Source: an uncultured virus (IMG/VR IMGVR_UViG_3300045210_000027)
Lineage: Duplodnaviria; Heunggongvirae; Uroviricota; Caudoviricetes
Virus record (IMG/VR): IMGVR_UViG_3300045210_000027
Length of the DNA stretch: 64,000 bases
Reading direction: 5' to 3' (one strand)
Made by a program: the position numbers and the translations under genes. Shown here piece after piece: positions 866-38,171 of the stretch. A model generated the notes under the pieces. It searched no databases and had not been told where the DNA came from. It saw only the letters and a program-made list of their open reading frames with translations. The stretch's first letter is position 1; each line of letters opens with the position of its first letter.

Positions 866-874
866 GGGGGCCTC

Positions 875-1243: not shown

Positions 1244-1247
1244 CCGA

Positions 1248-6062: not shown

Positions 6063-6063
6063 G

Positions 6064-7041: not shown

Positions 7042-7050
7042 GGTGTCCTC

Positions 7051-16215: not shown

Positions 16216-16240
16216 GGTGTCCTCCTTGGACGGTGGATGG

Positions 16241-22300: not shown

Positions 22301-22358
22301 GACGAAGCCCCCGACCACTGGTCGGAGGCGGAAGTGGGGACAGGTATCCCTACGGGGG

Positions 22359-23514: not shown

Positions 23515-24547
23515 GATGACTGCCCCCGGACCTACGGGCACCACGCCTACCCCTCCGCCTGCGAGCGCCTGGTGGTCTCTCCTGTGGCCCGAGTGCGGGG
23601 TGGTGGTTCCCGTCCTGGCCCGAGGCATGCCCGAGCCCGTCCGGTCCCGTCCTGGCCCGTCCTGGCCCGCCCCTGCCTGTCCTGTCCCGTTCCCTACCCG
23701 AGCCAGTCCCGTCCCGTCCCGACCCGGCAAGAGGACTCTTGTCGACCTGCGAGTCTGAGACTCGTCTTGAGACTCGGGTCGCGGTGGCGGCGGTGTCCGC
23801 GCTGCTCGACGGCGCTTCGGGTCGCACACCCTGGCGGGGTGCGGGGTCCGAGCTGCCGGTCGGCGCTGCGGGTCGCTGCTCGGTGACCTTGGTGGTCGCC
23901 TCGCGGTATCCGTGTTCGGTGAGGTACTTCGCGGTCGTGTCGCCGTAGGTGGGCGCCTTCGGTGCCGGAAGTATCGGGTGGTCGTCGTCCCAGCCTGGGT
24001 TGTCCTTGCGGGCGGAGTTGCAGCCGAGGCAGAGCACGAACATCGTGTCGATGGTCGCGGCGGTCTTGGGGTGGAGGTGGTCGAGGGTGCCCGTGCGGCT
24101 GGACGTCTTGCCGCGCCAGTGGACGCCGATGCCGCAGCGCCGGCAGTTGTCGCCGTCGCGTGCGAGCACGGGTGCCTTGATGCGGGGGTCTCGGGTGTCG
24201 TTGCGCTGCTGGCGTTCCCACTCGATCTCCGTGCGGGTGCGCATGTGCAGGAAGTCGGGGTCCTCGACGATCCGGTACGAGGGTGCTCCGGTCGAGGTTG
24301 TCGTCTCGGTCAGCAGGCCGGCGGTGATCGCGACGCGCACGAGCTCGTCAGTCCGCGCGCCTCCGATCATCTCGACGGTGCCGACGTCGACGAGGTAGTC
24401 GGTCATGTGCGCGGCCGCCTGCGCGGCGAGCCGGAACACGAAGCCCGCGACCTCGTTGACCGTGCGCGAGTCCGCGCCGGGTACGCCGCGGGCGCCCGTC
24501 AGTGCTGGGTAGGTCGCGGCGTTGTCGCCCGTCTTGAGCCACGGCAC
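23507..24547 (-). CDS. Replication initiator-like protein with HNH-type domain
   Basis: MPWLK.GD N-terminus; RDG..C..C...DH...C..CN; repeat-rich 3' end. Confidence 0.65.
   Translation of the reverse strand: MPWLKTGDNAATYPALTGARGVPGADSRTVNEVAGFVFRLAAQAAAHMTDYLVDVGTVEMIGGARTDELVRVAITAGLLTETTTSTGAPSYRIVEDPDFLHMRTRTEIEWERQQRNDTRDPRIKAPVLARDGDNCRRCGIGVHWRGKTSSRTGTLDHLHPKTAATIDTMFVLCLGCNSARKDNPGWDDDHPILPAPKAPTYGDTTAKYLTEHGYREATTKVTEQRPAAPTGSSDPAPRQGVRPEAPSSSADTAATATRVSRRVSDSQVDKSPLAGSGRDGTGSGRERDRTGRGGPGRARTGPDGLGHASGQDGNHHPALGPQERPPGARRRRGRRGARRSGGSHRE
23630..23726. repeat. Degenerate pentamer array (CCCGT/CCTGG/CCTGT), possible origin of phage A
   Basis: About 18-19 tandem imperfect 5-mers inside the replication gene. 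Confidence 0.6.
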
Positions 24548-24570
24548 CCGGGCTCACCATCCTCTCGGTC

Positions 24571-24678
24571 TCAGCTGCTGCACCGGCATTCCCCGGTGAT
24601 CGGATTGATCCACCCGTCGCAGGACGGGCACCGCTCACGCTCTGCGAGCGGCGGGCGGGTCTGGTTGGTCGTTGTCAT
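24571..24678 (-). CDS. 35-aa zinc-finger peptide
   Basis: GAGGAGG RBS; CPSC...CRC. Confidence 0.55.
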   Translation of the reverse strand: MTTTNQTRPPLAERERCPSCDGWINPITGECRCSS

Positions 24679-24786
24679 CTGGTCTCACCTCCTCGGGGTG
24701 TTCTCGTGCGTCGTGGTCACGCTTGAGGGACGCGACCGGGAAACGGCGCGGTGGCCAGCACCGGACGCAGGTCCAGGCGTCACCCC

Positions 24787-24984
24787 TCACGGCTCGATCC
24801 CCAGCACGTGGTCAGGGACACCCGGGAACCACGAGCGGAGGATGGTGTCGCCCTGCTCGGTCTCGAGGTCCCTGGCCTTGCAGAGCATGCGGACGAGGTG
24901 ACGGGCCTCCGCGACCTCGTGCCGCAGTGCTTGCGAGCGCCGGCGGCGGTCCGAGCGGCGCTTGCGATCCCGTGACCGGCTCAT
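24787..24984 (-). CDS. Hypothetical protein
   Basis: ATGA overlap with upstream ORF. Confidence 0.5.
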   Translation of the reverse strand: MSRSRDRKRRSDRRRRSQALRHEVAEARHLVRMLCKARDLETEQGDTILRSWFPGVPDHVLGIEP

Positions 24985-25553
24985 CGCTCGCCCGCGACTT
25001 CCTGCGGAGTGTGGACACAGCGGTTAGGGCGTACCGTCGCGACATGGGAACTCTGATAGTGGTGCTGCTCGTCGCCTGGTTGATCCTGTCGATCGTCGGA
25101 TTCATGCTTAAGGGACTGCTCTGGCTGGGTCTTATCGGTGTTGTGCTGTTCGTCGGCACCGCCGTGATCGCCGTGATTCGCCGCAAGGCTCACCGTCGGG
25201 ACTCGCCTCCCGCTCCCTGAGCGCGAGACGGCGGCCGTTTCTGCGTGCCGACGTTCCTGACTGCGCGGTCGTGCCGCTGCCGTCTCATCCATCGCGCCGG
25301 CACACAGTGCGCGGCATGCGTCCGCGACCTCACGATCCGACCCCGTCAGGACGATGTCCCGCAGGTGCCGCAGCTCGCCGGACCGGACGATCGTCACCGG
25401 CACCACGTTGTCGAGGCGGTCGGTGCCGTCCCGGTAGAGCCGCTGCCCCCCACCGATCGCCTGGTAGTGCCCTGCCAGGTCACGCACGAAGTAGTCCGGC
25501 CGGCCACCGGACGGGGTGGCCTCGATCAGGTACGCCGTCGGCCAGGAGGCCAT
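24981..25553 (-). CDS. Hypothetical early protein (homolog at 62369-62974)
   Basis: TGATG-coupled start; conserved in both phages. Confidence 0.65.
   Translation of the reverse strand: MASWPTAYLIEATPSGGRPDYFVRDLAGHYQAIGGGQRLYRDGTDRLDNVVPVTIVRSGELRHLRDIVLTGSDREVADACRALCAGAMDETAAARPRSQERRHAETAAVSRSGSGRRVPTVSLAANHGDHGGADEQHNTDKTQPEQSLKHESDDRQDQPGDEQHHYQSSHVATVRPNRCVHTPQEVAGER
25044..25220 (+). CDS. 58-aa two-TM membrane protein, probably leaderless
   Basis: Hydrophobic; copy at 62432-62608 has synonymous/conservative changes; TACCGT -10 six nt upstream of ATG. Confidence 0.8.
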   Translation: MGTLIVVLLVAWLILSIVGFMLKGLLWLGLIGVVLFVGTAVIAVIRRKAHRRDSPPAP

Positions 25554-25729
25554 CACATCCACCCCCACGCGGTGGCGAGCGCCTTCACGGCGTAGCCGAC
25601 GAGGGTGAGTAGGCCGATCATGATGGCGACGCCGATCAGGCACAAGATCGTTGCGCCGATGACGCGGCCAACGACACCGGGTCGGTGGCCGGGGCGGCGG
25701 CCTGGGCGGCGGGGGGATTCGTTCAGCAT
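25553..25729 (-). CDS. Small membrane protein
   Basis: GGAGG RBS; single long hydrophobic stretch. Confidence 0.6.
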   Translation of the reverse strand: MLNESPRRPGRRPGHRPGVVGRVIGATILCLIGVAIMIGLLTLVGYAVKALATAWGWM

Positions 25730-25732
25730 GGG

Positions 25733-26191
25733 TCAGTCCTCCGTGGGTAGAGCGGTGATGGTCAGGCGCACGGTGTGCGTGCCCTTGGGGGCGCGGAGTG
25801 GGGAGTGCTCCCAGGACTCGCGCCGGATGTGGAGCTGGCTGTCGCCGCCCAGCAGGCCCTCGCGCACGTACTGATCCAGCAGGGCCTTGCACACCGGCTG
25901 GGAGTTCGATGCGTCCGCCTCGCCGGCCGTCGGGTAGCCGATCGTCCACAGCACATCCACCAGGCCGGCCACCGTCACGACGGGCCTGCCCGCAGCCGCG
26001 TAGGCGGCCCTCGCGAGCCACCTCAGCTGTTCCTTCATCGCGGTGTGGTGGTGGACGTTGCGGGGGAACCGGTTCGAGGTGAACCACGCGGAGGCAGGGA
26101 TGACGACCTCGAGGCCGGCACCGATCTCGGCATCGCTCAGGTCACAGCGGAAGCAGCCCGGGACGTTGGCGCGGTGATCGTGCGCGGTCAT
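25733..26191 (-). CDS. RusA-like resolvase
   Basis: D..N.....K.L.D....G.L..DS motif (partly degenerate). Confidence 0.6.
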   Translation of the reverse strand: MTAHDHRANVPGCFRCDLSDAEIGAGLEVVIPASAWFTSNRFPRNVHHHTAMKEQLRWLARAAYAAAGRPVVTVAGLVDVLWTIGYPTAGEADASNSQPVCKALLDQYVREGLLGGDSQLHIRRESWEHSPLRAPKGTHTVRLTITALPTED

Positions 26192-26460
26192 GTCGTCTCC
26201 ATTCCGGTGAGCAGCGAGGGCGTGCCAAGCTCGTCGACGTCGCCCGTCGAGACGTCGCCCCTCGGGACGGCGACCATGGGGACGATGTCGATGAGGTCGC
26301 AGTACTGGTGATCGGCCCAGTGCTGGCCGTCGATGCTGACGGCGTCGCCTCGGGCGATGAGTGCCCACACGGTGCGGAGTCGCTCGGTGAGGTGGGGTGC
26401 TCGGTGCACGCGGGTCGCCTCGACGAGGTGCCCGTGGTCGGGGGTGGGCCAGGAGGTCAT
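26188..26460 (-). CDS. Hypothetical protein
   Basis: ATGA-coupled. Confidence 0.55.
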   Translation of the reverse strand: MTSWPTPDHGHLVEATRVHRAPHLTERLRTVWALIARGDAVSIDGQHWADHQYCDLIDIVPMVAVPRGDVSTGDVDELGTPSLLTGMETT

Positions 26461-26699
26461 GCGGCTTTCGCCTGCCGGTACTGCATGGCCTGCATCTCGG
26501 CCCGCAGCTCGTTGGGGTCGGCGGCCGCACACTCGGGGCACGTGGCCCGGCCGACCGTGAACGTGAGCCGCGCGCCGGCACTGTCGGCGTCGGTGACGTC
26601 GAGGACGGTGCGGCCGCAGGCGGTGCCCATGTCGGGCAGCACCATGTGCGTCCTGGACGGGGCGATCTCCGCGGCGAGGAGGTCGAGGAGGTCGGTCAT
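26457..26699 (-). CDS. Hypothetical zinc-binding protein
   Basis: H...ACG...TCPEC; ATGA-coupled. Confidence 0.55.
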   Translation of the reverse strand: MTDLLDLLAAEIAPSRTHMVLPDMGTACGRTVLDVTDADSAGARLTFTVGRATCPECAAADPNELRAEMQAMQYRQAKAA

Positions 26700-27202
26700 G
26701 CCGTCACCTCGAGGAGGTCGAGCATGCTCGGCGTACCGAGGTCGTCCGGGACACCAGAGGGAGCGGCGGCGACGGCAGCGACCAGGGCCGCCGCCAGCGC
26801 ACGGTCCAATCGGATGTGCTCGGCGACCGCGCGACGATCCCGCTCGCGCTGCTCGTCGGTCACGGTGCCGTCGATGTACCCGAGGGAGTACTCGTGCGCG
26901 GCGGCGCAGTACTCCGCATATGCGGTCCGCTCCTGAGCGCGCAGGGCCAGCATCGGTTTGAAGTCGAGGCGGGCGACCAGTTCCTTGCGGATCTGCGCCC
27001 ACGTCGCGTCGGGGCTGCTGGCGTGGGGGTTACTCGTCGTCGCCCAGACGCCCTTCGGGGTCGCGCAGCCCTGCGCGTCGGCGCCGTGCCAGCCGTGATT
27101 CTCGGGCTTGTGGCAGTCGCCGTCGAAGAGCAGGTCGGCGTACTCCCGGTACAGGTTGCGCACCGTCAACTGGATGACGTCCCAGACGTCGAGGTCGCTC
27201 AT
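26696..27202 (-). CDS. Hypothetical protein
   Basis: ATGA-coupled. Confidence 0.6.
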   Translation of the reverse strand: MSDLDVWDVIQLTVRNLYREYADLLFDGDCHKPENHGWHGADAQGCATPKGVWATTSNPHASSPDATWAQIRKELVARLDFKPMLALRAQERTAYAEYCAAAHEYSLGYIDGTVTDEQRERDRRAVAEHIRLDRALAAALVAAVAAAPSGVPDDLGTPSMLDLLEVTA

Positions 27203-27465
27203 GCTGCGGCCTCCCGTGCTGCTCGGCGTCGGGCGTACCGCTCGGCGGGGGACTCTCCGCCGTACATGCCGAACATGTCGTCGGGTCTGTTCGGCTCGAA
27301 GCTGTCGGCGTAGTCGCGGCAGGCGGCCTTGACGGGGCAGGTGTCACAGATGGCCCTGGCGCGGCCGGCGGTCTCACCCTTGCCGGGGAACCACGCGTCC
27401 GGCCAGGACTGCGCGCAGAGCGCTTCGTCCATCCAGGGCTGCGGGGACAGGTTGGCGAGAGTCAC
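27199..27465 (-). CDS. whiB: WhiB-family transcription regulator
   Basis: W...ALC....D.WFP...C..CPV...C...G.YGG. Confidence 0.9.
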   Translation of the reverse strand: MTLANLSPQPWMDEALCAQSWPDAWFPGKGETAGRARAICDTCPVKAACRDYADSFEPNRPDDMFGMYGGESPAERYARRRAAREAAA

Positions 27466-27641
27466 GCCGCGACCGCCCGCCTGGCGAAGGCCCCCTGCAG
27501 GCGGCGGTGGACGGCGGGCGGGAAGAACTCGTACCGGTCGACACACGCCTTGCAGATCGCCCACTCGTACCCGTGGACATTGATGTGCGCGAGCTCGAGC
27601 CCCTCGGCCCGGCAGGTGAAGCAGCGCGGCCGGCAGGTCAT
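27462..27641 (-). CDS. 59-aa zinc-finger protein
   Basis: CFTC...CKAC; coupled on both sides. Confidence 0.55.
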   Translation of the reverse strand: MTCRPRCFTCRAEGLELAHINVHGYEWAICKACVDRYEFFPPAVHRRLQGAFARRAVAA

Positions 27642-28468
27642 GACTTGCCCCCAGACACGACCTGCAACGCACCGTGCATGATCCGGCGAGAAAGCTCGGC
27701 GGCGAGGTCGCCGACGTCACCCCTCGCGGCCGCGGAAGCCTGGTCCGCGAAGTCGCGCATGAGAGAGACCTGCACGTTGCCGGCGGTCAGATCGCGGGTC
27801 TCCGCTGCCAGGTGGTGGAGCCCGACGAACCGGCCCCCCACAGGGCGGACGATGAGCGTGTTCTCGACGGACCCAACGGTCACGGTCTCGCTGAACAACG
27901 CGGCCGCCTTCACGAGCTTCTGCAGCGCACCGATGCGGCCACCGACCAGCGGCCCGGCCGGCTCGATCACGCGAAGCACCGCCGCGACGTTCGCAGGCAC
28001 GTCCGGGTAGTCGTCCTTGCCGTCGCTATCCACGTGGGCCTTCACGAGCGGGACCTTGACCTGCCGGGCGCCGAACAAGGTGCCAACCTCGGTCAGGCTC
28101 AGGTGGTCCGCGCCCTGGTTCCCGTCGGGGAGGATTTTGCCGGGCACGACGAGAAGCTCGAGAGGCTCCTTGTCCCACACCGCGGCGAGATCCTTCGCGG
28201 ACGGCTTTCGGATGACCGCGAGCGCGGCCTGCGCCTCGGCGATCTCCATGTCGAAACCGTCAGCGTCACCGCCGGGCGCGTCTTCGATCTCGCAGACCGC
28301 GACTGCTTCCGCCCCGTTATCGGTCGTCCACGCCACCAGGCCATCGCCCGTGGGCAAGAACCGGATCCGGCCCAGCGACGGTGTGTCGTCCGTCTGCTTG
28401 CCAGCCAGCGGCACCAGAGCGGCGAGAGTGGCCCGGAACTCGCCGCGCTTCACGACAAGGTGAGTCAC
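27638..28468 (-). CDS. Hypothetical protein, possibly sliding-clamp-like fold
   Basis: TD, YPD and V.LM pattern reminiscent of beta-clamp repeats. Confidence 0.45.
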   Translation of the reverse strand: MTHLVVKRGEFRATLAALVPLAGKQTDDTPSLGRIRFLPTGDGLVAWTTDNGAEAVAVCEIEDAPGGDADGFDMEIAEAQAALAVIRKPSAKDLAAVWDKEPLELLVVPGKILPDGNQGADHLSLTEVGTLFGARQVKVPLVKAHVDSDGKDDYPDVPANVAAVLRVIEPAGPLVGGRIGALQKLVKAAALFSETVTVGSVENTLIVRPVGGRFVGLHHLAAETRDLTAGNVQVSLMRDFADQASAAARGDVGDLAAELSRRIMHGALQVVSGGKS

Positions 28469-28902
28469 CGGGCCCACCGCCTCGCGAGCCAGCCGACGGC
28501 GGAGACCGCTGCCATGCCGAGACCGACGGTCAGCAGGACGGCGCCCTCGATGCGGCGCCGCAGTCGGCCGCGCTCGTCGTGGGTGACGTACTCGCGGTCG
28601 ATGTCGGGCCAGTCCCAGGTGGTGTCGAGGCACGTCGCGGCGGTGTCGGGCTCGTCGTCGTCCTCGACGGCGATGTCGGGGACCCGGTCGGGGTGGATGC
28701 CGCACTGGCTGCACCCGTGGAGGAGGATGCCCGTGCAGTAGAGCTCGATGGCCTCGACCGTGTTGAAGTGCGTCAGGTGGTCGCAGAAGCGGCACTTCAC
28801 GGCGACGTGGTGGCCGATCGGGTAGACCTCGTGGGAACGGCCGACCAGGTCGGAGGCAAGCATCTCGCCGACGATCAGGACCGCATCCGGGTAGTCGTTC
28901 AT
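28465..28902 (-). CDS. Zinc-ribbon protein with C-terminal TM
   Basis: CRFC...CSQC; hydrophobic tail. Confidence 0.6.
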   Translation of the reverse strand: MNDYPDAVLIVGEMLASDLVGRSHEVYPIGHHVAVKCRFCDHLTHFNTVEAIELYCTGILLHGCSQCGIHPDRVPDIAVEDDDEPDTAATCLDTTWDWPDIDREYVTHDERGRLRRRIEGAVLLTVGLGMAAVSAVGWLARRWAR

Positions 28903-29282
28903 CAGTTCTCCTCGGTGTCTCCGGCCGCGTAGTCGCGGCCGCTCACTGCCGCCACGGCCTCACGGGCGGCGGTGCACGTGTAGTTGTGGTGGTGGTGCCT
29001 GGTCTCGTCCCGCTCGTCGAACGGGGCGGCCTGGGTGATCGAGCGGCACCAGCCCGAGAGGCGATCGACCGCGTACTGCGCCGTCACGTCGTCCTCCGCT
29101 GCCGGCACCGCGTCCAGGAGCATCGGCGAGCGCCCCGCGCCGGGTCCGGTGGTCACGAGGTCGGGCATGAAGCGGCGAGTGATGGTGAGGGCTCCGCAGC
29201 CGGTGTCGCAGGGGGTGGCGGTGCGGGCGATCGTGGCGGTGAGGCCGGCGGCGCGGAGGGTGCGGAGTTCGTCGTCGGTCAC
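28902..29282 (-). CDS. Hypothetical protein
   Basis: C...CGA...LDA.P...H..TC. Confidence 0.6.
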   Translation of the reverse strand: MTDDELRTLRAAGLTATIARTATPCDTGCGALTITRRFMPDLVTTGPGAGRSPMLLDAVPAAEDDVTAQYAVDRLSGWCRSITQAAPFDERDETRHHHHNYTCTAAREAVAAVSGRDYAAGDTEEN

Positions 29283-29722
29283 CACAGGGCGACCTCCTCG
29301 ACTCCGTCGCCTTCGAGCGGGACGGGTGAGGCCGGCGCGGGGGTGTCGGCGGGGCCGTCGTTGATCTGGACGTGCCCGCCGGCGAGCAGGGCCGCCTGGG
29401 TGCGTTGGTAGACGCGGACGGTTGCCCGGTGGGCGGAGGCGCCGGTCGACCGCTCGTAGACGTCGACCATGCGGCCGAAGATGTCCTGCCAGACCGCGGG
29501 CTTGAGAAGTCCGGCCTTCGATGCCGCGTAGAACAGGCCGCCACGCATGCTCGGCGGGATCTTCGCGCGGTCGAGCTCGGCCCGCAGGATGTTCACCGAC
29601 ACCGACGTGCCCGGCTCGACCTCGGCGACGACCTCGAAGAACCGCGCCTTGAACGCCTCGCGGCCCTCGATCGACTGCTCCTGGCCGGCGCGCTTCGCGG
29701 CCTCGGCCTCGTGGACGCTCAC
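29279..29722 (-). CDS. Hypothetical (winged-helix-like) protein
   Basis: GG.F..A...G.L...S....AH...V.VY motif. Confidence 0.6.
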   Translation of the reverse strand: MSVHEAEAAKRAGQEQSIEGREAFKARFFEVVAEVEPGTSVSVNILRAELDRAKIPPSMRGGLFYAASKAGLLKPAVWQDIFGRMVDVYERSTGASAHRATVRVYQRTQAALLAGGHVQINDGPADTPAPASPVPLEGDGVEEVALW

Positions 29723-29862
29723 CGGTGCTCACCCCCCGCCATGCGCGCCATACGTTCCCGCCGGGCCTTCTGCACGTCACGGTGAGCAGCCCGCACGCCG
29801 AGCACCAGCAGGGCCACCAGGCCAGCTGCGATCGCCCAGATCACGATCAGGTCCCCGCTCAT
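29719..29862 (-). CDS. 47-aa membrane protein
   Basis: N-terminal TM; coupled on both sides. Confidence 0.55.
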   Translation of the reverse strand: MSGDLIVIWAIAAGLVALLVLGVRAAHRDVQKARRERMARMAGGEHR

Positions 29863-30248
29863 GACCGGATCTCCGCGTGTGGGTCCACGCCGCGGCGCAG
29901 CGGGGCGACCATCACCCCGAGGAGCGCGTCGATCCGGATCACGCCCGTCCGGCGCGCCGTCCCCTCGAGAAGGTCCAGCAGCTCGGCGAGCGCCTCCATG
30001 AGCGTGGTCTCGCGGACGAGGGTCGAGCGGGCGTGGAGGGCGTCGATGCGGGAGCGAGTCGCGGTGATCATCCCCGCGGTGATCGAGGGGATCTCCGCGA
30101 TCGGGCGGGAGTCACCACCATCGATCGCCGCGAGCTCGACACCGGCGGGCGGCTCGTCATCCGTGAGCGCGAGCGATGCCGCGCACTCGCGGGCCGACAG
30201 CGACGGGCGGGTGTCGGGTGGCGAGTCGACTGCGTTCAGGTAGCACAT
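29859..30248 (-). CDS. Hypothetical protein
   Basis: ORF in early operon. Confidence 0.5.
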   Translation of the reverse strand: MCYLNAVDSPPDTRPSLSARECAASLALTDDEPPAGVELAAIDGGDSRPIAEIPSITAGMITATRSRIDALHARSTLVRETTLMEALAELLDLLEGTARRTGVIRIDALLGVMVAPLRRGVDPHAEIRS

Positions 30249-30352
30249 GTCGTAGCCTCGATTCGTTCGTTCGATGCGACGCCCCGGTCTTCTTGGTCGA
30301 TAGCCGGGGCGTCGTCTTGTCTGCGGGTGGGGGCGACGCTGATCAGCGGTGA

Positions 30353-30802
30353 TCAGTCGTCGGAGTCGTCTTCCGGGATGAGGCGGAGCAGATCGGCGAT
30401 CGACTTGCCGGCCACGTCGGCCGCGACCGCCGCGACGTCGAGCGCGTCCGCGTCGAGCCGGTGGAAGCCGAGGTAGTCCGCGGAGCGCAGCAGGTGCACG
30501 ACGGACTCGAGGCGCGTTCGGATCTGCGTCAGCTTCTTCGAGCGGTCCACCGACTGCCGGTCACGGTCCGCCGGTGCCCACTCCGGCGCAGGCTGCGCAG
30601 GCGGGCCGGGCTTGGGTACCGTCCGGGCGGCCGCCATCGAGGCCAGCGGGACGTTGACCGCGGCGATGACATCAGCGCGCGGGTGACGGGCCGCGATCGC
30701 GCCCGGAGGGATCTCCGGCTCTCCGCCGGCGACCGGGATGAGAGGCGGCTGCGGCGTGGGGAAGTTGCCCGGCACGCTGGAACCCGCGAGGTTGCCGGTC
30801 AT
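30353..30802 (-). CDS. Hypothetical protein
   Basis: ATGA-coupled. Confidence 0.55.
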   Translation of the reverse strand: MTGNLAGSSVPGNFPTPQPPLIPVAGGEPEIPPGAIAARHPRADVIAAVNVPLASMAAARTVPKPGPPAQPAPEWAPADRDRQSVDRSKKLTQIRTRLESVVHLLRSADYLGFHRLDADALDVAAVAADVAGKSIADLLRLIPEDDSDD

Positions 30803-31422
30803 CGCTCGTCCGCCGATCCAGCGCGGTCGAGTTCAGCCTCGGCCAGGCCCACCGCCCCGGTGGACCCGGCCGACGCCGCGGCACCGTCAGGAGCGGGGAA
30901 GGGAGCACCCGCTCGACTGTCGGCGCCTACCCCTACGGTCGGAATATCGCCAGACGCGCCCGCGTCCGACGACCTACCAGCGGCACGAGTTACCAGCTCG
31001 TCCCGCTCGACCGAAAGGGAGTTCCCATGCGATTCAGCGTCACCTACGGCACCGAGACCTTCACCGTCGAGGGCGAGAGTCTCGACTCCGTCGCGGCCAG
31101 CTACTGCACGCAGCAAGGAAGCGGCCTCTTCCCGGCCGGCATCCGCAAGGCGGAGGACGGAAACAGGCTCGAGGTCCGTCTGATCGTCGGAGCCCCGTTC
31201 CCGATCATCGTCCGCGCTGACCGCGTTCAATAGATACGGCGCTACGTCACCTAGGATCTCGGCGGCGATCGACGCGACCGCTCGGGCCTGTCGATCGCCG
31301 TCTTCGGGCGCCGACAAATCCGCCAACTCGCGGGCCTGGTGGATCAGCCCGTCCACGGCCGCGAGAACCTTCCTCGTGCGGGTGAGCGGGAAGACATCGA
31401 GGCGAGGCAGGTCGTCGCTCAT
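30799..31422 (-). CDS. Hypothetical early protein spanning a nested antisense gene
   Basis: TGATG start and ATGA end; middle overlaps 31027-31233(+). Confidence 0.45.
   Translation of the reverse strand: MSDDLPRLDVFPLTRTRKVLAAVDGLIHQARELADLSAPEDGDRQARAVASIAAEILGDVAPYLLNAVSADDDRERGSDDQTDLEPVSVLRLADAGREEAASLLRAVAGRDGVETLALDGEGLGAVGDAESHGNSLSVERDELVTRAAGRSSDAGASGDIPTVGVGADSRAGAPFPAPDGAAASAGSTGAVGLAEAELDRAGSADER
31027..31233 (+). CDS. 68-aa hypothetical protein
   Basis: GAAAGGGAG RBS; globular composition; high GC at third codon positions. Confidence 0.7.
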   Translation: MRFSVTYGTETFTVEGESLDSVAASYCTQQGSGLFPAGIRKAEDGNRLEVRLIVGAPFPIIVRADRVQ

Positions 31423-31921
31423 CACGCACCCGCCTTCGCAGTCACGCGGTTGCCGCGGCGAACCGAGCGCGCATGCGGCCCCCGCGTGGTTGAGTTGGGA
31501 ATGCTGGCCACATCCGCGATGCGGGCCCATCCGCCTCGCCGGCCAGCACCCCCGCCCCCACGGACCACAGGAGAGCCCCCATGGCCACACTCGTCACCGC
31601 GAGCGCGCGCATCAGCGTCGCCGACACTGACGCCTTCGAGATGATCAGCGATGCCCGCGTTCAAGCAACCGAGGGGCGCACTGCGGTCTTCACCGTCAAG
31701 GACATCGAGACCGGGACGGTTCACGCGTTCCTCGCCGGTCCCGGACAGCATCTCGCCATCGAGCTCGACTCCGACCTCGAGGCGGCCGCGTTCGCCGACT
31801 TCATCACCGACGGCCAGATGACCTTCTACGACAACTGACGTGGGGCCCGCGCCTCGGCTGCCAAGCTCGGCGGCCGAGGCGTCGTCGTACTTCCACCAGT
31901 TCATCACGCACCCGCCTTCGC
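31419..31921. repeat. 21-bp direct repeat tcatcacgcacccgccttcgc (31419-31439 and 31901-31921)
   Basis: Exact match read from the sequence. Confidence 0.9.
31581..31838 (+). CDS. 85-aa acidic hypothetical protein
   Basis: AGGAG RBS; typical codon usage. Confidence 0.75.
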   Translation: MATLVTASARISVADTDAFEMISDARVQATEGRTAVFTVKDIETGTVHAFLAGPGQHLAIELDSDLEAAAFADFITDGQMTFYDN

Positions 31922-32152
31922 GTGATCGCCGGCGAGCGCCGGGTCGTCATCGACCAGCACGCTCATCGGCACGCCGATTCGTTCCGCGATCAGTTCCAGC
32001 TCGGCGAGGTTGATCGGCCGCGCTCCGGTGAGCTTCTGGCTGATCGCTCCGCTGCTGATGTGGAGCACCTCGGCGAGATCCGCCTGACGGAGACCTCGTC
32101 GAGCCATCTCCGCTCGAATGTTAGAGAGTGTTGCACCGCGTAAGATCTGCAT
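31904..32152 (-). CDS. Cro-like XRE HTH protein
   Basis: IRAEMARRGLRQADLAE.L.IS..AIS.KL.G; divergent from repressor. Confidence 0.9.
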   Translation of the reverse strand: MQILRGATLSNIRAEMARRGLRQADLAEVLHISSGAISQKLTGARPINLAELELIAERIGVPMSVLVDDDPALAGDHAKAGA

Positions 32153-32265
32153 GCGGCATGTCTACACCACGTCACAGGGTCTTGCAAGCCGCAAGATCAG
32201 CGCGTTGCGAAACCTGGACTTGCAGACCCTTCCGCATTCTTACGGTGCGTTGTAGACTCTCACGT
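32153..32265. promoter_or_regulatory. Divergent leaderless promoters of the genetic switch
   Basis: Minus strand: TTGCAA(32182-87)-17 nt-TAGACA(32159-64) just upstream of cro ATG. Plus strand: TAGACT(32253-58) seven nt before repressor ATG. Confidence 0.7.
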
Positions 32266-32769
32266 ATGACAGCTACGCCAATCCATCCGCAGGCATCGCC
32301 CGATGAGCCCCCGCTCGCGTATGTCGTGGCGGCAAACATCCGCGCAGAGATTGGCCGAGCCGGCCTGACGAAGCTTGAGGTCGCCCGCCGTCTCGGTCTC
32401 TCATCCGGCGGCTTCTCGCTGAAGCTGAGCGGAGCTCGACCGATCACGCTCGGGGAGATCGAGGCGATTGCCGACATGTTCGGGCTGGACCCCGCCGAAC
32501 TGCTCGTGCGCAGGACGCCCCGTCGCGGCCCAGAAATGGCGAATGCCCCGGTCGCATACGCGACCGGGGCATCTGCGCGCCCGAAGGGACTCGAACCCCC
32601 AACCTTCTGGTCTGGAGTCCAGCGCGACGAGCACCTCGCCGAGATCGTCCCGCTCCCGGTGGTCTCCGAGCCGGCTATCGAGCGCGACGAGCTCGCGACC
32701 GTCCACACCCTCTCACCTGCGACCACGCTGTCCACAGACGTGGATCTCGAACTGCCTCACGCCCGCTGA
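32266..32769 (+). CDS. Immunity repressor (XRE HTH) containing an att core; 167-aa untruncated form
   Basis: HTH resembling the cro protein; ...RPKGLEPPTFW is encoded by the antisense of a tRNA 3' half. Confidence 0.9.
   Translation: MTATPIHPQASPDEPPLAYVVAANIRAEIGRAGLTKLEVARRLGLSSGGFSLKLSGARPITLGEIEAIADMFGLDPAELLVRRTPRRGPEMANAPVAYATGASARPKGLEPPTFWSGVQRDEHLAEIVPLPVVSEPAIERDELATVHTLSPATTLSTDVDLELPHAR
32543..32572 (-). terminator. Hairpin that would follow the reconstituted tRNA
   Basis: Perfect 13-bp stem atgccccggtcgc-atac-gcgaccggggcat. Confidence 0.7.
32574..32609 (-). other. att core equal to the 3' half of a tRNA (Arg-like)
   Basis: Minus strand CAGAAGGTTGGGGGTTCGAGTCCCTTCGGGCGCGCA: T-arm GTTCGA plus acceptor strand; no 5' half. 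Confidence 0.9.
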
Positions 32770-32790
32770 TCCGGTGTTGAAATCGCGAGC

Positions 32791-33618
32791 ATGAGAGAGA
32801 AACCGATCACTCCGGAATGGTCCAAGGCCCTCAACGATTGGTCGGCAGAGATGCGCTCTGCCAGCCGCTCCCCCGGCACAATCACCACCCGCACAGACCA
32901 CCTCCGACGATGCTCCCGCGCCCTCGGCGTCGGACCGTGGGACGTCACCCCCGACGACCTCGTGGCCTGGACCGCGGCGCAAACGTGGTCGGCCGCCACC
33001 CGCCGAAGCGTCCGCGCGTCGCTCCGAGGCTTCTGGGAATGGGCCACCCGCACCGGACGCTGCACCACCTCGCCCGCCATCGTGCTGCCCAAAGTCCGCG
33101 AACCCGACCACCGGCCGCGACCCACCCCGGATGCCGCACTCCGCGAGGCGATCATGCGCGCCGACCACCGCGTCCGGCTCATGATCGAGCTCGGCGCCCA
33201 CCGCGGCCTCCGGCGCGCCGAAGTCGCCTGCGTCCACATCAGCGACCTCGTGCAAGACCTCGACGGCTGGACGCTCCTCGTCCACGGCAAGGGCGGCCGG
33301 CGCCGGTTCATCCCGCTCGACAACGGACTCGCCGACCGGATCCGCGCCGCCTGCCAGGACGGGGCCGGCTACGCCTTCCCCGGTAAGATCGACGGCCACC
33401 TCTCCCCCAGATGGGTGGGCGAGCTCGTCGCGGAGGCCCTCCCGGGCGAGTGGACCATGCACAGCCTGCGTCACCGATTCGCCACCAAGACCTGGCGCGC
33501 CACCAACGATCTCCTCGCCGTGCAACAACTGCTCGGGCACTCCACCCCCACCATCACGCAGCGCTACGTCGACGTCGACCGCGCACGCCTCCGCGTCGTC
33601 GCCCAGACGGCCGCCTAA
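32791..33618 (+). CDS. int: Tyrosine integrase (short, no arm-binding domain, C-terminal -AA)
   Basis: GLRRAE, GKG, HSLRH, LGH and Y catalytic set. Confidence 0.95.
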   Translation: MREKPITPEWSKALNDWSAEMRSASRSPGTITTRTDHLRRCSRALGVGPWDVTPDDLVAWTAAQTWSAATRRSVRASLRGFWEWATRTGRCTTSPAIVLPKVREPDHRPRPTPDAALREAIMRADHRVRLMIELGAHRGLRRAEVACVHISDLVQDLDGWTLLVHGKGGRRRFIPLDNGLADRIRAACQDGAGYAFPGKIDGHLSPRWVGELVAEALPGEWTMHSLRHRFATKTWRATNDLLAVQQLLGHSTPTITQRYVDVDRARLRVVAQTAA

Positions 33619-33687
33619 CCGGACCACCCGGTGCCAGAACTGGCATACCCTCCACACAATCCCCCGCCCCACCCCGAAAGGCCCACC

Positions 33688-34071
33688 ATGCACACGCGCC
33701 CCCGAACGCGAATCGCCCTCGCCGTACCCGTCGCCCTGCTCGCTCTCGCTGGCTGCACCTCCCCCGAGCAGGAAGCGATCAACGAGATGAACGAGCAAGC
33801 CGAGATCAACGAGCAGATGATGGAAGAAGAGTTCGGCTTCCTCGACGAGGACGAGGCCGCACCCCTGACGCCACTCTCGCCACACCTAGGACTGTCCGAG
33901 CTCGAGGACCGCGACTTCTACCCCGCGTGGGAACGGCGCCCTGACGAGTGGAACGAGATGGACTGCGAATCCTGGCGCAGCGACCGTGAGGGCCAACTGA
34001 TCTCGTGGCACATGCAGGTCCCCGAGGTCGAGGACTCGATCCTCGAGGACTTCTACGACGACGTCTGCTAA
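33688..34071 (+). CDS. Acidic lipoprotein
   Basis: Signal peptide with LAGC lipobox; GAAAGG RBS. Confidence 0.8.
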   Translation: MHTRPRTRIALAVPVALLALAGCTSPEQEAINEMNEQAEINEQMMEEEFGFLDEDEAAPLTPLSPHLGLSELEDRDFYPAWERRPDEWNEMDCESWRSDREGQLISWHMQVPEVEDSILEDFYDDVC

Positions 34072-34089
34072 CTCCGACCACCGACACAC

Positions 34090-34129
34090 AAGGGCCCGTC
34101 TCGATCACCGACGATCGAGACGGGCCCTT
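34090..34129. terminator. Bidirectional terminator hairpin
   Basis: 17-bp perfect stem between convergent genes. Confidence 0.8.
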
Positions 34130-34414
34130 CTAGCGCCGCGTGATGTCGGCGGCGTCGAGCCACACTCCGAGGATCTGCCGCCGGCGGTCGTGGATGCTGA
34201 TGAGGACGGCGCGGCCGGACCACGCGACGGCCTGAGTGTCGAGCTGCTCCTCCCCGTCGCGTTCCCAGTGGATGCGCGCGGTGACGGGGATGGGTTCGGG
34301 TGCGTCGACCTGGTCGTGGCGGGGCGGGATCGGGACCTCGTTGGTGATCGCCTGCCAGAGGTCGGCGTCGGCGTCCCAGGAGCCGGGGTCGGTCATGGGT
34401 GGTCTCTTGCTCAC
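34130..34414 (-). CDS. Hypothetical small beta-rich protein
   Basis: V.ARI.WE.DGEE...A.AW...VWL.A.D. Confidence 0.7.
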   Translation of the reverse strand: MSKRPPMTDPGSWDADADLWQAITNEVPIPPRHDQVDAPEPIPVTARIHWERDGEEQLDTQAVAWSGRAVLISIHDRRRQILGVWLDAADITRR

Positions 34415-35115
34415 CAGCGGTGAAGCACGCTTGTGCCCTCCGTGCGCACGGAATCAGGAGGGGTCAACGTCCAGCCCTGCTTGCGCAAGACATCAGCCGC
34501 CTCCTCCTGCAAGTCGCGCACGGTGGTACGAAACTGCCGTCGCCGCCACTTCTCTCGACCGGCTTTCAGCGCGCCTTCCCAGCCCGTTTTGCAATCCACG
34601 CCGAGCTCCCTGACCGCGAACTCCAGAACATCCTCGACGCACGGCCGGAAGCGTTCTCCACCAACTGGAAAGTGCAGCGAGGACATGTCGTGCGGATTCT
34701 GGACCACGTCGCTGCGCACCGCGTGAGCTTGACCAAGCAGGTGCGAAAGCGCTCCGCGGTCAGCATGGATGTGCCAATGAGCGAACGGGGCGTCCTTCGC
34801 CATGTCGGACCTGAACTCTTGGCGGATGAGCGGCGTTCGATCGAGTACCGACTCGATGGCAACGGCAGATCCCATCGTCTTCAAGAACTCTCCGGAGTGG
34901 TCGAGCCCTAGAAACACCTGAACCTTCAGCTTTGCAGCGAGCACCTCACCGATATAGAGCGGGACCCGCTGCGACTTCGCTTCGGAACCGGCCGGCCGGA
35001 CTACGTACCTACCGTTGTGGGCGACCGATATGAGTTGGAAGTCGCCGGGCAGCACCCCGCTGAGTGTCTCTTGGAGTTCTTGCGCGAAAGCCGCGGCTCG
35101 TTCTCTGAGGTCCAA
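34411..35115 (-). CDS. Accessory protein with HxH motif (putative toxin/defence effector)
   Basis: AHWHIHA and LHFPVGGERFRP; lower GC; start uncertain (TTG 35115). Confidence 0.65.
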   Translation of the reverse strand: MDLRERAAAFAQELQETLSGVLPGDFQLISVAHNGRYVVRPAGSEAKSQRVPLYIGEVLAAKLKVQVFLGLDHSGEFLKTMGSAVAIESVLDRTPLIRQEFRSDMAKDAPFAHWHIHADRGALSHLLGQAHAVRSDVVQNPHDMSSLHFPVGGERFRPCVEDVLEFAVRELGVDCKTGWEGALKAGREKWRRRQFRTTVRDLQEEAADVLRKQGWTLTPPDSVRTEGTSVLHRW

Positions 35116-35128
35116 GTGATGACGCTGT

Positions 35129-35314
35129 TCAGTCGTCAGCGCCCAGAAGGAACGTGATCGCGTCGAGTTCCTCCTTAGCGTCCCACTCCTCGCCAGAGAG
35201 CGTGCGCGTAGCCACGGCGCGCTCGAACTCGCGCTCGGTGAGTTCGATCCGCCGGAGGATCTGTTCGCGGCGTGCGACAAGGTCTGCGCTGCTGACGTCG
35301 ATTACGGGTGCCAT
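35129..35314 (-). CDS. 61-aa acidic protein (putative antitoxin/partner)
   Basis: GGGAGG RBS; TACTGT -10 at 35342-47. Confidence 0.7.
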   Translation of the reverse strand: MAPVIDVSSADLVARREQILRRIELTEREFERAVATRTLSGEEWDAKEELDAITFLLGADD

Positions 35315-35517
35315 GACAACCTCCCTTGGTCTGTGTGGCCCACAGTAGACCACGCAGGACAGACACTGACGTCGGTCGGACACCGCGTGCCACCGACCCC
35401 CAGGCACGACAAATCGCCCCCGCCCAGCCGAAGCTGAGCGGGGGCGGTGTCGTTGGCGCGCGACCCCGGCCTTCCAGGGGGGTGGGTTGTGGGCGCGGGG
35501 CCACGCTGAGGGAGAGG

Positions 35518-35745
35518 CTACTCGTGCCTGCCCGGCGTGGACTCCACCGGGCGGACGAGGTACCCGCCGACGATCGAGCCGACAGCGGCCAGGAGCACGG
35601 CGAACGCTGCCGAGACCTCGGTGGGGACGTCGACGCCGATGAGGGACAGGAGCCAGACGAGGACGATGGCGGCGGCGCCGGCGACGCCGGTGCCGGCGGC
35701 CGCGGCGGTGGTGACGGGTCCGATGGTGCGGGGGGTCGTGTTCAT
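35518..35745 (-). CDS. Holin
   Basis: 75 aa, two TM segments, directly after endolysin. Confidence 0.8.
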   Translation of the reverse strand: MNTTPRTIGPVTTAAAAGTGVAGAAAIVLVWLLSLIGVDVPTEVSAAFAVLLAAVGSIVGGYLVRPVESTPGRHE

Positions 35746-35747
35746 GG

Positions 35748-36812
35748 TCAGGCGCCCTTCTGGTTCTTGGGGTTGCGGGGGTCGAGCTGGGACAGGACTA
35801 CGTTGTTCTGCTCGATGCGTTCGCGGCCCTTCACGAGGTCGGCGGTGCGGATCTCTGCGACCAGGTCGGTGACGGCGCCTGCGACGGCGGCGAGCTGCTC
35901 GAGGATGACTTCGAGCCGGCGTTCGTTGCGCTCGGTCGCGGCCTTCAGCTTCTGGCTGTCGGTCGCGAGGGTCTTCACGGTGGCCATGTCTGCCTCCAAG
36001 GCGGTGGTGGTGATGGGGCCGGGGTCGCCGTCGGTGACGAGGCCGGCGTCGTGCTGGTAGGTGCGCACTGCGGTGCGGGTGGCGTCGCCGAGGACGCCGT
36101 CGATCAGCCACTTCGTGGTGTCGAGGTAGCCGAGGTCGGCGAGCGCCTGCTGGATCTTCTTGATGCCGGCCGCGGGTGCGGGCGCCGGGGAAGGGCCAGG
36201 ATCCGAGCTGCCGGTGATCTGCTTGGCGCGGGCGAGGATGGTCGGCATCTGCAAGATCCGGTCGTCACCCGGGCAGGTCTTGCCGAAGGCCGATGACCAC
36301 CGCTCGGTCTTGAGGTTGGAGCGGTGCAGGCCAAGGAGGCCGGGCCGGCCGGAGAAGTTGCCCTGCACGCCGAGGCGATGCCAGCCCAGGCCGTGCTGAC
36401 TCGTCGCGGAGGAGGTCATGAGGCGGAGGGGGACGTCGTAGGTGCGGTGCGCCCACGCGGCGATCTGGGCGAGGGTCTCGACCTGGGCGTCCGTCCACGG
36501 CTCACCGTCCACGCCCTGGGTCTCGACGGTGATGGCGCGCAGGTCGCCGTCCCCGCACGCCCAGGAGACGTGGTCGGCGTCGACGTACTGCTCGACCAAC
36601 CCGCTGTAGAGCACGAACAGGTGAGAGGACGCGCGGACGGCAGGGATGTTGAACCAGTCGCGCAGGCTCGCGGCCTTGGATGCGGCGACGTGGTAGATCA
36701 CGGCCGTCGTCCCGCCAGGGCGGGCCGCGGTCCGGTCGATCTTGCCACCGCTGCGAACGAGGCCGTGGTTCGTGCTGATGGGCTTCTGGATGGCACCGGG
36801 GAACTGGGCCAT
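35748..36812 (-). CDS. Endolysin (amidase plus peptidoglycan-binding plus C-terminal coil)
   Basis: YH, SSHLFV, ETQG, WH, KTCPG; IQQAL..LGY...DG..G..T..AV..YQ. Confidence 0.92.
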   Translation of the reverse strand: MAQFPGAIQKPISTNHGLVRSGGKIDRTAARPGGTTAVIYHVAASKAASLRDWFNIPAVRASSHLFVLYSGLVEQYVDADHVSWACGDGDLRAITVETQGVDGEPWTDAQVETLAQIAAWAHRTYDVPLRLMTSSATSQHGLGWHRLGVQGNFSGRPGLLGLHRSNLKTERWSSAFGKTCPGDDRILQMPTILARAKQITGSSDPGPSPAPAPAAGIKKIQQALADLGYLDTTKWLIDGVLGDATRTAVRTYQHDAGLVTDGDPGPITTTALEADMATVKTLATDSQKLKAATERNERRLEVILEQLAAVAGAVTDLVAEIRTADLVKGRERIEQNNVVLSQLDPRNPKNQKGA

Positions 36813-36822
36813 GGTGGCCTCC

Positions 36823-37206
36823 TCAGAGGTCGTCTCGGATGTCGTCGGGCACCTCGGGCCGCGGCGACGGATTGTCGGCGGGTGTGTGGTCCGCGATCCA
36901 GCGGAGCAGCACGCGGATGAAGTCCAGGGCCAAGCGGTGCCGGCGTCGGAGGTCATCGCGCTGGGCGCGGAGCTTCTCCACGTGGTCGAGCAGATCCTCG
37001 ATGCGCTCCTGACGGGGACGCACCTGATGCTCGGTGATGTCGTCCAGGAGAGCCGCGTAGCGCTTCTGCCAGGCGTCCTCGCCCTCCCGCTCCTCGCGGA
37101 CCAGCCCGAGCTTCCCGTCGTTCTTGTTCTTGGTCACGGTGGCGATCACGGCGATCACGCCGGTGACCGCCCCGACGGCCGCGACGACCGCGGAGATGGG
37201 GTCCAC
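36823..37206 (-). CDS. Lysis-cassette membrane protein
   Basis: N-terminal TM plus coiled coil. Confidence 0.7.
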   Translation of the reverse strand: MDPISAVVAAVGAVTGVIAVIATVTKNKNDGKLGLVREEREGEDAWQKRYAALLDDITEHQVRPRQERIEDLLDHVEKLRAQRDDLRRRHRLALDFIRVLLRWIADHTPADNPSPRPEVPDDIRDDL

Positions 37207-37212
37207 CTGGCC

Positions 37213-37698
37213 TCACTCTCCGTCGACCGTGGGCTCATCACGGACCCGGCGAATCGCCTCCTGGTACTGGTGGTGCGCCTGACGTCGGAGCCGGGCGCGC
37301 GCCTCGATCCACCGCGCACGGACGAGGAACATGCTGATGGTGGAGAGGACGATCGCGCCCTGCATCATGCGAGACCAGGCGGAATCACCGAGCACGATCG
37401 ACCAGACGCCAGCCGCGTAGGCGCCGATCCCACCGGAGACCAGGTGGATCACGACCCGCTCGATCCGCCACCGACGCGCCAGGACGGAGACCGTGGAAAG
37501 CAGGCCACCCACCGCGGCCATCGCCGCGGCCCCCGTGGTCACAACCCAGCCGATGGTCCCCTCGATCGTCTGAGGCGTCCACACCAAGCCAGCGAGCCCC
37601 GCGATCATCGCCCAGCCGTAGGCCACCGCGAGCCACGGCCGGATCGTCTCCTCCATCTCCTCGATGAGCGCCAGATCACTGACCGGCCGCAGGCTCAC
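37213..37698 (-). CDS. Multi-pass membrane protein (holin-like)
   Basis: About four TM segments; distant homolog of 1248-1718. Confidence 0.65.
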   Translation of the reverse strand: MSLRPVSDLALIEEMEETIRPWLAVAYGWAMIAGLAGLVWTPQTIEGTIGWVVTTGAAAMAAVGGLLSTVSVLARRWRIERVVIHLVSGGIGAYAAGVWSIVLGDSAWSRMMQGAIVLSTISMFLVRARWIEARARLRRQAHHQYQEAIRRVRDEPTVDGE

Positions 37699-38171
37699 GA
37701 CGATCCCTCCTCGAGCTCCCAGCCGGCCGGGTACTCCGTGGGTGACCAGGCGTTGTTGTCGATGAGGGACACCCACACCTGGCCCTCGAAACTCACGCGG
37801 TCGCCGGCCATGTAGGGGTTGTGGGCCTGGGGGCGTTGCCACTCGGGTGGGGGTGCGCCCTCGGGCACGATCTCCCGCCACGACGACAGCGGTTCCACGC
37901 CGGGCTCGTCCGGGTTCCCTGCGCGCAGGGACTCCCACTCACGGCCGTCGTGAGTGACGGTCGACCCGAGCGGGTAAGCGTCGTGGTAGCCGGTTGGCTG
38001 CACCCAGGCGTCGCCCGGCTCGCGTCCGGCGGCGGTGGCCCAGTCGGCGGCGAGTTGCTCGATCTGCTCGGGGATGTGGGCCAGGGTCGCGCGGCGGCCG
38101 AGCTCGTCCTGCGCGGCGATGATGAGGGCCGCCAGGTCCTCGTCGGTCATGGTCGTCAGGTCCGTGGTCAT
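37695..38171 (-). CDS. Tail-associated protein with CBM5/12-like repeats
   Basis: C-terminal ~100 aa nearly identical to 1715-2206. Confidence 0.7.
   Translation of the reverse strand: MTTDLTTMTDEDLAALIIAAQDELGRRATLAHIPEQIEQLAADWATAAGREPGDAWVQPTGYHDAYPLGSTVTHDGREWESLRAGNPDEPGVEPLSSWREIVPEGAPPPEWQRPQAHNPYMAGDRVSFEGQVWVSLIDNNAWSPTEYPAGWELEEGSS

Follow-up and report, generated by a model that had tools for sequence, protein, structure and literature searches.

An uncultured virus of the Caudoviricetes (IMG/VR record IMGVR_UViG_3300045210_000027) carries at positions 32,266 to 33,618 a repressor gene which runs through a tRNA-derived sequence and directly into a short integrase gene. The question raised by this locus is whether the tRNA-derived sequence is the native phage attachment site (attP) of one temperate phage or a hybrid site formed between two. 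The window referred to throughout comprises bases 1-64000 of this 65,243-bp record, which IMG/VR classes as linear. A first-pass annotation had read the locus as the product of tandem integration of two phages, with a chimeric repressor. We consider it very probable that the locus is instead the native attP of one temperate phage, here called phage A, with an immunity system likely of the type described for mycobacteriophage BPs, and that the record was most likely joined to an unrelated phage, here called phage B, through a lysin segment carried by both.

The repressor gene and its attachment site

The common core of the attachment site corresponds to the 3' part of a tRNA-Arg(ACG) and lies antisense within the repressor gene, behind a hairpin which is itself part of the reading frame; both had been recognized in the first-pass annotation (Table 1). 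The open reading frame (ORF) reads ACC TTC TGG through the core (codon 115, 32608-32610) and continues for 53 further codons to end in ...LELPHAR, again as first described. ARAGORN found no whole tRNA in the window and the Rfam tRNA model gave a partial, sub-threshold match only (32576-32634, minus strand, 19.4 bits). The identity of the core is shown by a related contig, L003, which carries a complete tRNA-Arg(ACG) at the same place, and by exact copies of this tRNA in the genome collection (see below). This contig is 99.97% identical to window positions 22266-32609 and then passes into the remaining, 5' portion of the tRNA and on into host DNA, and is the right prophage junction (attR) seen directly. 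The repressor in L003 ends ...GLEPPTF-TGA and has 114 amino acids (aa) as compared with 167 in the window, codons 1-114 being the prophage form. The expectation that a bacterial attachment site (attB) in tRNA-Arg(ACG) would supply a TGA codon and stop the repressor at 114 aa is thus confirmed in the integrated copy, where the host tRNA does create this stop.

The part of the repressor which is lost on integration, the tail, has the properties of coding sequence. GC content by codon position in the repressor frame is 0.77/0.45/0.81, and a diverged relative of the repressor, P0010 (168 aa, 87% identical overall), has head and tail in one continuous ORF. Counted from the alignment, 109 of the 114 head residues are identical between the two proteins and about 68% of the tail residues. 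The tails end ...LELPHAR in the window and ...PPHAC in P0010, with the second-to-last alanine conserved and no -AA in either; by analogy with BPs, the tail is predicted to carry an instability signal. By exact protein look-up, the 167-aa form was present on 47 contigs and the 114-aa form on 8, while a 77-aa ORF (MANAP...), as would fit a left prophage junction (attL) that has the host terminator to its left, was present on 9. Integrated and attP states of the site both occur.

The hairpin next to the core is unusually stable for its composition, with the surrounding 61 nt folding at -37.5 kcal/mol (z = -4.0) and none of 200 shuffled sequences folding as well. Georgenia sp. Z1344 (L033) also carries this hairpin behind its copy of the tRNA, which indicates that the phage hairpin is a copy of the host tRNA terminator. 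There, the phage sequence is matched at 47 of 48 nt downstream of the tRNA, and attP and attB are identical at 82 of 83 nt, through the terminator hairpin. Integration would place the hairpin behind the restored tRNA. Variants of the hairpin were found in Georgenia sp. Z1491 (L054), in Actinomycetales bacterium JB111 (L031), where the stem contains compensating changes, and in a further contig, L004. Repressor codons from approximately 83 to 103 (32513-32574) resemble at the DNA level the host sequence which follows tRNA-Arg in JB111 and in two Georgenia genomes, and judged from this resemblance the repressor head may be of host origin in its 3' part.

The exact 74-nt tRNA-Arg(ACG) is present in 39 stretches of the genome collection, including Cellulomonas, Georgenia, Actinomyces and Schaalia. 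The host flank in L003 is 93% identical over 914 nt to JB111, at one of these 39 tRNA loci, and the host is likely a relative of Georgenia and Actinomycetales bacterium JB111.

Phage A as a single closed genome

Bases 1-430 of the window are an exact copy of 35948-36377, the first mismatch falling at 431/36378, and 1-35947 therefore closes as a circle. An independent circle of this extent, which the first-pass annotation had itself named as an outcome contrary to its reading, was found at the contig level both from the end repeat and from the corresponding join in an independent contig (L004/L005). That contig has zero mismatches to window 32573-36073, then carries A-type lysin alleles and continues through window 1-7668 at 99.9% identity. 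It is the attL side seen directly, with the core, repressor tail, integrase gene, next genes, A lysin and A tail genes in uninterrupted order. In all, the L004 contig covers 32573-35947 and 1-18427 and the L003 contig covers 12500-32609, each at about 100% identity, and since the two overlap they represent the two ends of one prophage A. The order of this prophage is core, repressor tail, integrase, A lysin, A terminase large subunit (TerL), cro, repressor head, core and tRNA. CheckV rated the two partial contigs, of 21,076 bp and 22,133 bp, as 52% and 57% complete, respectively, which corresponds to a genome of approximately 39-40 kb and not 65 kb.

The repressor tail, the integrase gene and the genes downstream of it belong to phage A. 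Because tail and integrase are contiguous with phage A, and because head and tail are found together in P0010, the repressor is no chimera of two phages, and the proposed fusion of a phage A head to a phage B tail is not upheld. The same contiguity, here with the lysin and tail genes of A in L004/L005, gives no support to the suggestion that an integrase gene of phage B had been placed behind the repressor promoter of phage A. The PHAR terminus is not a sign of a foreign tail, as P0010 retains head and tail and ends in PHAC.

The junction between phage A and phage B

Genes were called with guidance from GC content at third codon positions and annotated by PHROG and Pfam scans. The first-pass annotation had correctly placed phage DNA on either side of the site, and the window contains two complete virion gene sets (terminase, portal, capsid, tape measure and lysin), each on the minus strand. 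At the DNA level the two phages are otherwise unrelated and have three segments in common: a lysin segment (1-896 and 35948-36844, 97.2% identical with the first 430 bp exact), a segment near the lysis genes (1706-2036 and 37686-38016, 84.6%) and an early-region segment (24979-25550 and 62367-62938, 92.3%). The record passes from A to B at 35948-36377, within the lysin gene. The join could be an assembly error or a genuine cointegrate, and most likely the record ran on through the shared lysin segment.

Both lysins fall into one cluster of 25 members by exact look-up, of which 15 are listed and 13 of these are full length. Alleles were scored as an N-terminal block (residues 16, 53, 56 and 79) and a C-terminal block (residues 302 and 338). 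The resulting counts are lower bounds, as they are exclusive of four full-length mixed-block members (8 contigs), two shorter members and 10 members not listed. N-terminal block A was combined with C-terminal block VV on at least 89 contigs and with DA on at least 26, and block B was combined with VV on at least 17 contigs and with DA on at least 34. Block A thus occurs mostly with VV and block B mostly with DA, and the window has the B block with VV. Since all combinations occur, either these assemblies do not phase the gene reliably or recombination takes place within it. The lysin predicted for the closed A circle (P0023) was found on 15 contigs, one of them of 273,013 bp, and the window's own B-type lysin on 5.

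Phage B could be followed beyond the record. Contig L014 is 100% identical to record positions 55190-65243 and extends phage B by 8.7 kb, with a PrimPol-helicase gene, small early genes, a divergent HTH_3 repressor gene (15540-16292) and further plus-strand genes. The core is absent from it even with 3 mismatches allowed, no tRNA is present in the 8.7 kb past the record end, and the TGA-truncated repressor with an intact tRNA-Arg which had been predicted beyond 64000 was not found in these 8.7 kb. B contigs from two other samples end in the lysin gene, at 36398 and 36474, as is expected of an unresolved repeat.

Positions 15540-18794 of L014 encode the HTH_3 protein and a pair of unnamed ORFs, together with an M78-like peptidase, a DUF3263 protein and a lipoprotein-like ORF truncated at the contig end. 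An IMG/VR scan with the end of L014 returned its own contig only. Compared with three genomes reached from the tRNA loci, this end matched in the DUF3263 gene only (73-76% in two of the three). Among 301 genomes of the order, 63 contain weak matches to that gene, at no more than about 77% over its length, so that the end of L014 may be host DNA.

Depth in the sample runs

The words sampled from 31500-37500 were 95-97% represented in 24 runs with the label ant metagenome, and Logan contigs (k = 31) of four of these runs were compared with the window. Depth of the A contig was 13.2, 9.22, 14.2 and 11.4 in runs X1, X2, X3 and X4; that of the contig with the integrase gene was 12.8, 9.2, 14.2 and 11.5, and that of the long B contig 10.3, 6.6, 8.5 and 10.2. 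Integrase depth follows A in all four runs and equals neither B nor A plus B, while the depths of A and B differ by 12 to 67% in all four. Variant letters at 35908, 35918 and 35922 in three of the four runs represent a second haplotype to the left of the exact repeat. Phasing of the lysin variants by Logan contigs was tried and set aside, as the alleles were mixed differently from run to run.

Alternative explanations

Tandem A and B prophages at a single tRNA-Arg attB, with 32575-32609 a hybrid between the repressor head of A and a tail and integrase of B, would give the gene order seen in the record, and tandem prophages of this kind are described for Mycobacterium abscessus T36 in the part of PMC9934374 that concerns them. 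The tail-integrase arm of L004 also lies behind a different repressor head cut by an insertion sequence (IS), and serial integration at the tRNA seems to occur. We nevertheless regard a tandem origin of this record as very improbable. The tail, integrase and next genes are contiguous with the structural genes of A, and the integrase contig, which under this arrangement would show the depth of A plus B, shows that of A alone in all four runs. The 65,243-bp record contains a single core, phage B has a repressor without a core and no tRNA within 8.7 kb past the record end, and the record begins exactly where it repeats 35948. The claim of a hybrid attP made by tandem integration is not borne out by these observations.

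A real join, in which the A circle recombined with B in approximately 0.9 kb of lysin homology to give a cointegrate with A in the attP state inside B, is in our view improbable. In its favour, the junction falls within 430 bp of exact identity. All four combinations of N- and C-terminal lysin alleles are recorded, some on contigs of 85 to 273 kb, and homologous recombination is named as a route to tandem prophages in the relevant text of PMC9934374. Two separate genomes with a common repeat would give the same assembly graph, however, and the unequal depths of A and B in each run, together with the B contigs of two other samples that stop in the lysin gene, speak against a real join; by the BPs model, a resident phage A in the attP state would make only unstable repressor. 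It is also conceivable that in the source sample A exists solely in the integrated form and that the join of repressor head, core and tail is a wrong path through the core common to attL and attR. The break of Logan contigs at the core in all four runs would fit this, as would the integrated forms in other samples (L003, L004) and the occurrence of the integrase on contigs up to 384,928 bp. Against it stand the numbers of contigs with the exact long and short repressor (47 against 8), the same continuous ORF in the diverged P0010 and the coding GC pattern of the tail in the repressor frame, and we give this explanation hardly any credence.

Several observations weigh against our preferred explanation, that of a native attP in a single phage A joined to B by assembly. 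The deposited record does join the genes of A to the lysin of B; a B-type lysin with A-type C-terminal alleles is found on the 5 contigs noted above, and the allele combination on at least 17. An A-B lysin join on several contigs is recurrent and could be a real recombinant. The true left flank of phage B was not found, IMG/VR pattern scans (B-specific lysin, N at three variant places, holin region) having returned only known contigs. The shared lysin stretch and the core-tail junction were each without a match in the metagenome_contigs collection, from which these samples seem to be absent. The circle of phage A rests on contigs and not on reads, per-contig depth is a rough measure, and the longest contig with the exact 167-aa repressor (83,357 bp) is longer than phage A. 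Logan contigs break at 32573-32602 in all four runs, and as contigs built from 31-mers cannot span a 35-nt core with both flanks, they do not distinguish attP from attL plus attR. Instability of the long repressor and of the integrase is drawn from analogy with BPs, and the tail ends in PHAR rather than AA.

Integrase, cro and control region

The integrase contains the Pfam Phage_integrase domain (residues 124-264) and a weak SAM-like N-terminal domain (24-88). The motifs GLRRAE, HGKGG, HSLRHRF, LLGHS and TQRYV begin at residues 139, 165, 224, 247 and 256, respectively, and by our reading of the sequence would hold the catalytic residues. As the first-pass annotation had noted, a short integrase ending in -AA follows the repressor; it has 275 aa, and its end, ...VVAQTAA, resembles an ssrA-type end. 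Pfam detected no arm-binding domain in the integrase, and no excisionase or recombination directionality factor (RDF) family was found among 67 ORFs in PHROGs, an absent match being weak evidence in either case. The exact integrase protein is present on 213 contigs. A quick look upstream of an integrase relative (L009, 43% identity) revealed no comparable repressor and core.

The cro-like gene, a 113-bp gap, the repressor gene and the integrase gene together form a cassette of 1.7 kb. A 31-nt direct repeat (71% identical) at 32120-32201 covers the start of cro and the control region, with a palindrome in each copy. The operator-like palindrome has two matches in the window, and two or more matches were obtained in 32 of 100 shuffled sequences, so that it is statistically weak. 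A scan of 31800-33800 for sigma-70 promoters and terminators gave none.

Gene content of the window

The positions of the features discussed are collected in Table 1. The ORFs of phage A between the integrase and lysin genes (33631-35747) matched no family in PHROGs, Pfam or PADLOC (the last with five cargo ORFs), and may be genes expressed from the prophage. A 355-aa ORF (27674-28741, plus strand), likewise without a family match in PHROGs, Pfam or PADLOC, opposes the minus-strand early region of phage A. Eight early-region ORFs matched nothing in Pfam.

Table 1. Positions of phage genes, attachment site elements and candidate control sequences in the window.
Feature	Position	Strand	Basis
Phage A, complete temperate siphovirus-type genome, 35,947-bp circle	1-35947		PHROG matches, end repeat, contigs L003/L004
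Set A lysin	2-865	-	PHROG/Pfam
Set A tape measure	7960-11067	-	PHROG/Pfam
Set A capsid	14893-16215	-	PHROG/Pfam
Set A portal	17043-18998	-	PHROG/Pfam
Set A TerL	19318-20949	-	PHROG/Pfam
Set A early genes	up to 31.8 kb		PHROG/Pfam
Region between the sets: cro-like gene, repressor, integrase, four or five unnamed ORFs	31904-35747		
Cro-like HTH gene, 82 aa, divergent from the repressor gene	31904-32152	-	Pfam HTH_3, PHROG 4583
Candidate operator copy, 2 mismatches	32129-32145		inferred
Candidate operator TCTTGC-N5-GCAAGA	32180-32196		inferred
Repressor, virally encoded form, 167 aa	32266-32769	+	HTH: Pfam HTH_31/HTH_26; PHROG 4583 'transcriptional repressor'
Hairpin, 13-bp stem, 4-nt loop	32543-32572	-	RNA folding; matches host tRNA-Arg terminator
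attP common core, 3' 35 nt of the 74-nt tRNA-Arg(ACG), anticodon stem to acceptor end	32575-32609	-	antisense in repressor codons 104-115
Repressor tail, residues 116-167 and stop, lost on integration	32611-32769	+	coding GC pattern; homologous tail in P0010; absent from L003 prophage form
Tyrosine integrase, 275 aa, ends ...VVAQTAA	32791-33618	+	Pfam Phage_integrase
Lipoprotein-like ORF of phage A	33631-34071	+	lipobox read from translation
Unnamed phage A ORF	34130-34414	-	
Unnamed phage A ORF, 289 aa	34411-35280	-	
Small membrane protein, holin-like	35518-35748	-	look of translation
Set B lysin	35748-36956	-	PHROG/Pfam
Phage B, incomplete second siphovirus-type genome (lysin N-terminal part, tail, capsid, portal, TerL, early genes)	35948-64000, on to 65243 and further		PHROG matches, contig L014
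Set B tape measure	43000-46662	-	PHROG/Pfam
Set B capsid	50175-51251	-	PHROG/Pfam
Set B portal	54725-56305	-	PHROG/Pfam
Set B TerL	56333-57823	-	PHROG/Pfam
Set B early genes	58.4 kb to record end		PHROG/Pfam

Comparison with known integration-dependent immunity systems

Section 4 of PMC3694055 describes integration-dependent immunity as the property of an int/rep/cro cassette of about 2 kb with attP inside rep, in which repressor (Rep) and integrase (Int) both carry C-terminal degradation tags, integration strips the tag from Rep and Int works without an RDF. In BPs the repressor gp33 has 136 aa in its viral form and 103 aa in its prophage form, according to the passages on gp33 in PMC4557955, and the primer given there for cloning the 103-aa form ends GAA CCC CCA ACC TTC TGA, as does the prophage form here.

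The locus in phage A resembles BPs (Broussard and Hatfull) and the Cluster G relative Halo in having co-directional repressor and integrase genes with cro divergent and a short control region, in the position of the attP core inside the repressor gene with attB in tRNA-Arg, and in a prophage repressor which ends ...EPPTF-TGA; the assignment to a BPs-type cassette with divergent cro, core inside the repressor gene and a short integrase ending in -AA, made in the first-pass annotation, is well founded in this respect. The integrase is 45% identical to Halo gp32 over 277 aa (E = 3e-72), the repressor is shorter after integration, and, as in BPs, neither an RDF nor an arm-binding domain was found here in family scans. 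The HTH head of the repressor and the cro-like protein are without detectable similarity to Halo gp33 and gp34; the core-encoded RP(K/E)G(L/F)EPPTF alone aligns with gp33, and the cro-like protein gives no alignment. The repressor tail has 53 aa as compared with 33 in BPs, the integrase 275 aa as compared with 398 aa as annotated in Halo, and the likely host is a Georgenia/JB111 relative and not Mycobacterium. A further difference from BPs is that identity with attB reaches through the tRNA terminator hairpin (in Georgenia sp. Z1344, as given above).

By the BPs model, the 167-aa viral repressor and an integrase ending in -AA would be unstable and the 114-aa form would be the active repressor. 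The integrase alone would integrate and excise the phage, and the attP-state DNA of the sample would come from phage A that had been excised or was replicating.

In M. abscessus T36, the prophages prophiT36-2a and -2b are described in PMC9934374 as tandem prophages, both with integration-dependent immunity, at one tRNA attB, an arrangement which, as given in that description, is exactly what had been proposed for the present record. The record differs from that description in that there is one core and one cassette, the phage B repressor is of another kind, and the two genomes meet in the lysin gene and not at an attachment site.

Integration-dependent immunity is also predicted for Gordonia phages such as Obliviate, UmaThurman and Guacamole (PMC4929511), which, like the present case, represent a system predicted from sequence in actinobacteriophages outside Mycobacterium, and similar predictions are mentioned for a corynephage and for Bifidobacterium prophages. 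Gordonia phages account for 36 of the 127 phage records which match the region by DNA, although that similarity is limited to the integrase gene, at 65-68%.

Other repressor heads at the same integration arm

The contig which shows the attL side of prophage A (L004, the same contig as L005, L059 and L065) carries at positions 1-370, left of the core, the C-terminal end of an IS transposase (Pfam rve_2, E = 4e-7). It also carries a second, diverged repressor head from approximately residue 51 (...FTLNDLAVVAPLLGMSVVELV...), with its own hairpin variant and one base out of frame with the tail. By our reading, translation in this frame would meet a TAG stop from the host tRNA two codons further on. 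The left arm of L004 looks like an older prophage remnant at the same tRNA beside which phage A has integrated. A 95-aa protein, P0009, encoded on one contig of 16,646 bp, has the second head (MSVVELVAGGRLPNPAPDMAN...) fused in frame to the hairpin-encoded stretch and tail of A, and the same right arm thus occurs with two repressor heads.

Three left arms are found with the identical arm of tail, integrase and structural genes, the junction lying at the core or beside it: the A head, the second head (L004, P0009) and the host terminator (77-aa ORF). The A head, for its part, also occurs with a tail of only about 68% identity (P0010). We suggest tentatively, and with less than even confidence, that the core in the repressor gene is a point of module exchange, at which the integrase, by recombining attP with the attR of a resident prophage at tRNA-Arg, and also through serial or tandem integration beside older prophage remnants, would re-assort immunity with integration and virion modules.

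Significance

The locus does not represent a new arrangement, the claimed hybrid site of two phages being a record which crosses between two genomes within a lysin gene common to both. A contig's first bases should be checked for an internal exact repeat, here of 430 bp, before a double set of virion genes is taken to be a tandem prophage. For the phage itself, the BPs-type switch is likely extended to a phage of a Georgenia/JB111-related host in ant-associated metagenomes, and both states of its site are documented in natural samples, attP being represented by the window and attR by L003. The phage carries the 3' end of the tRNA together with a copy of the tRNA terminator, all within coding sequence.

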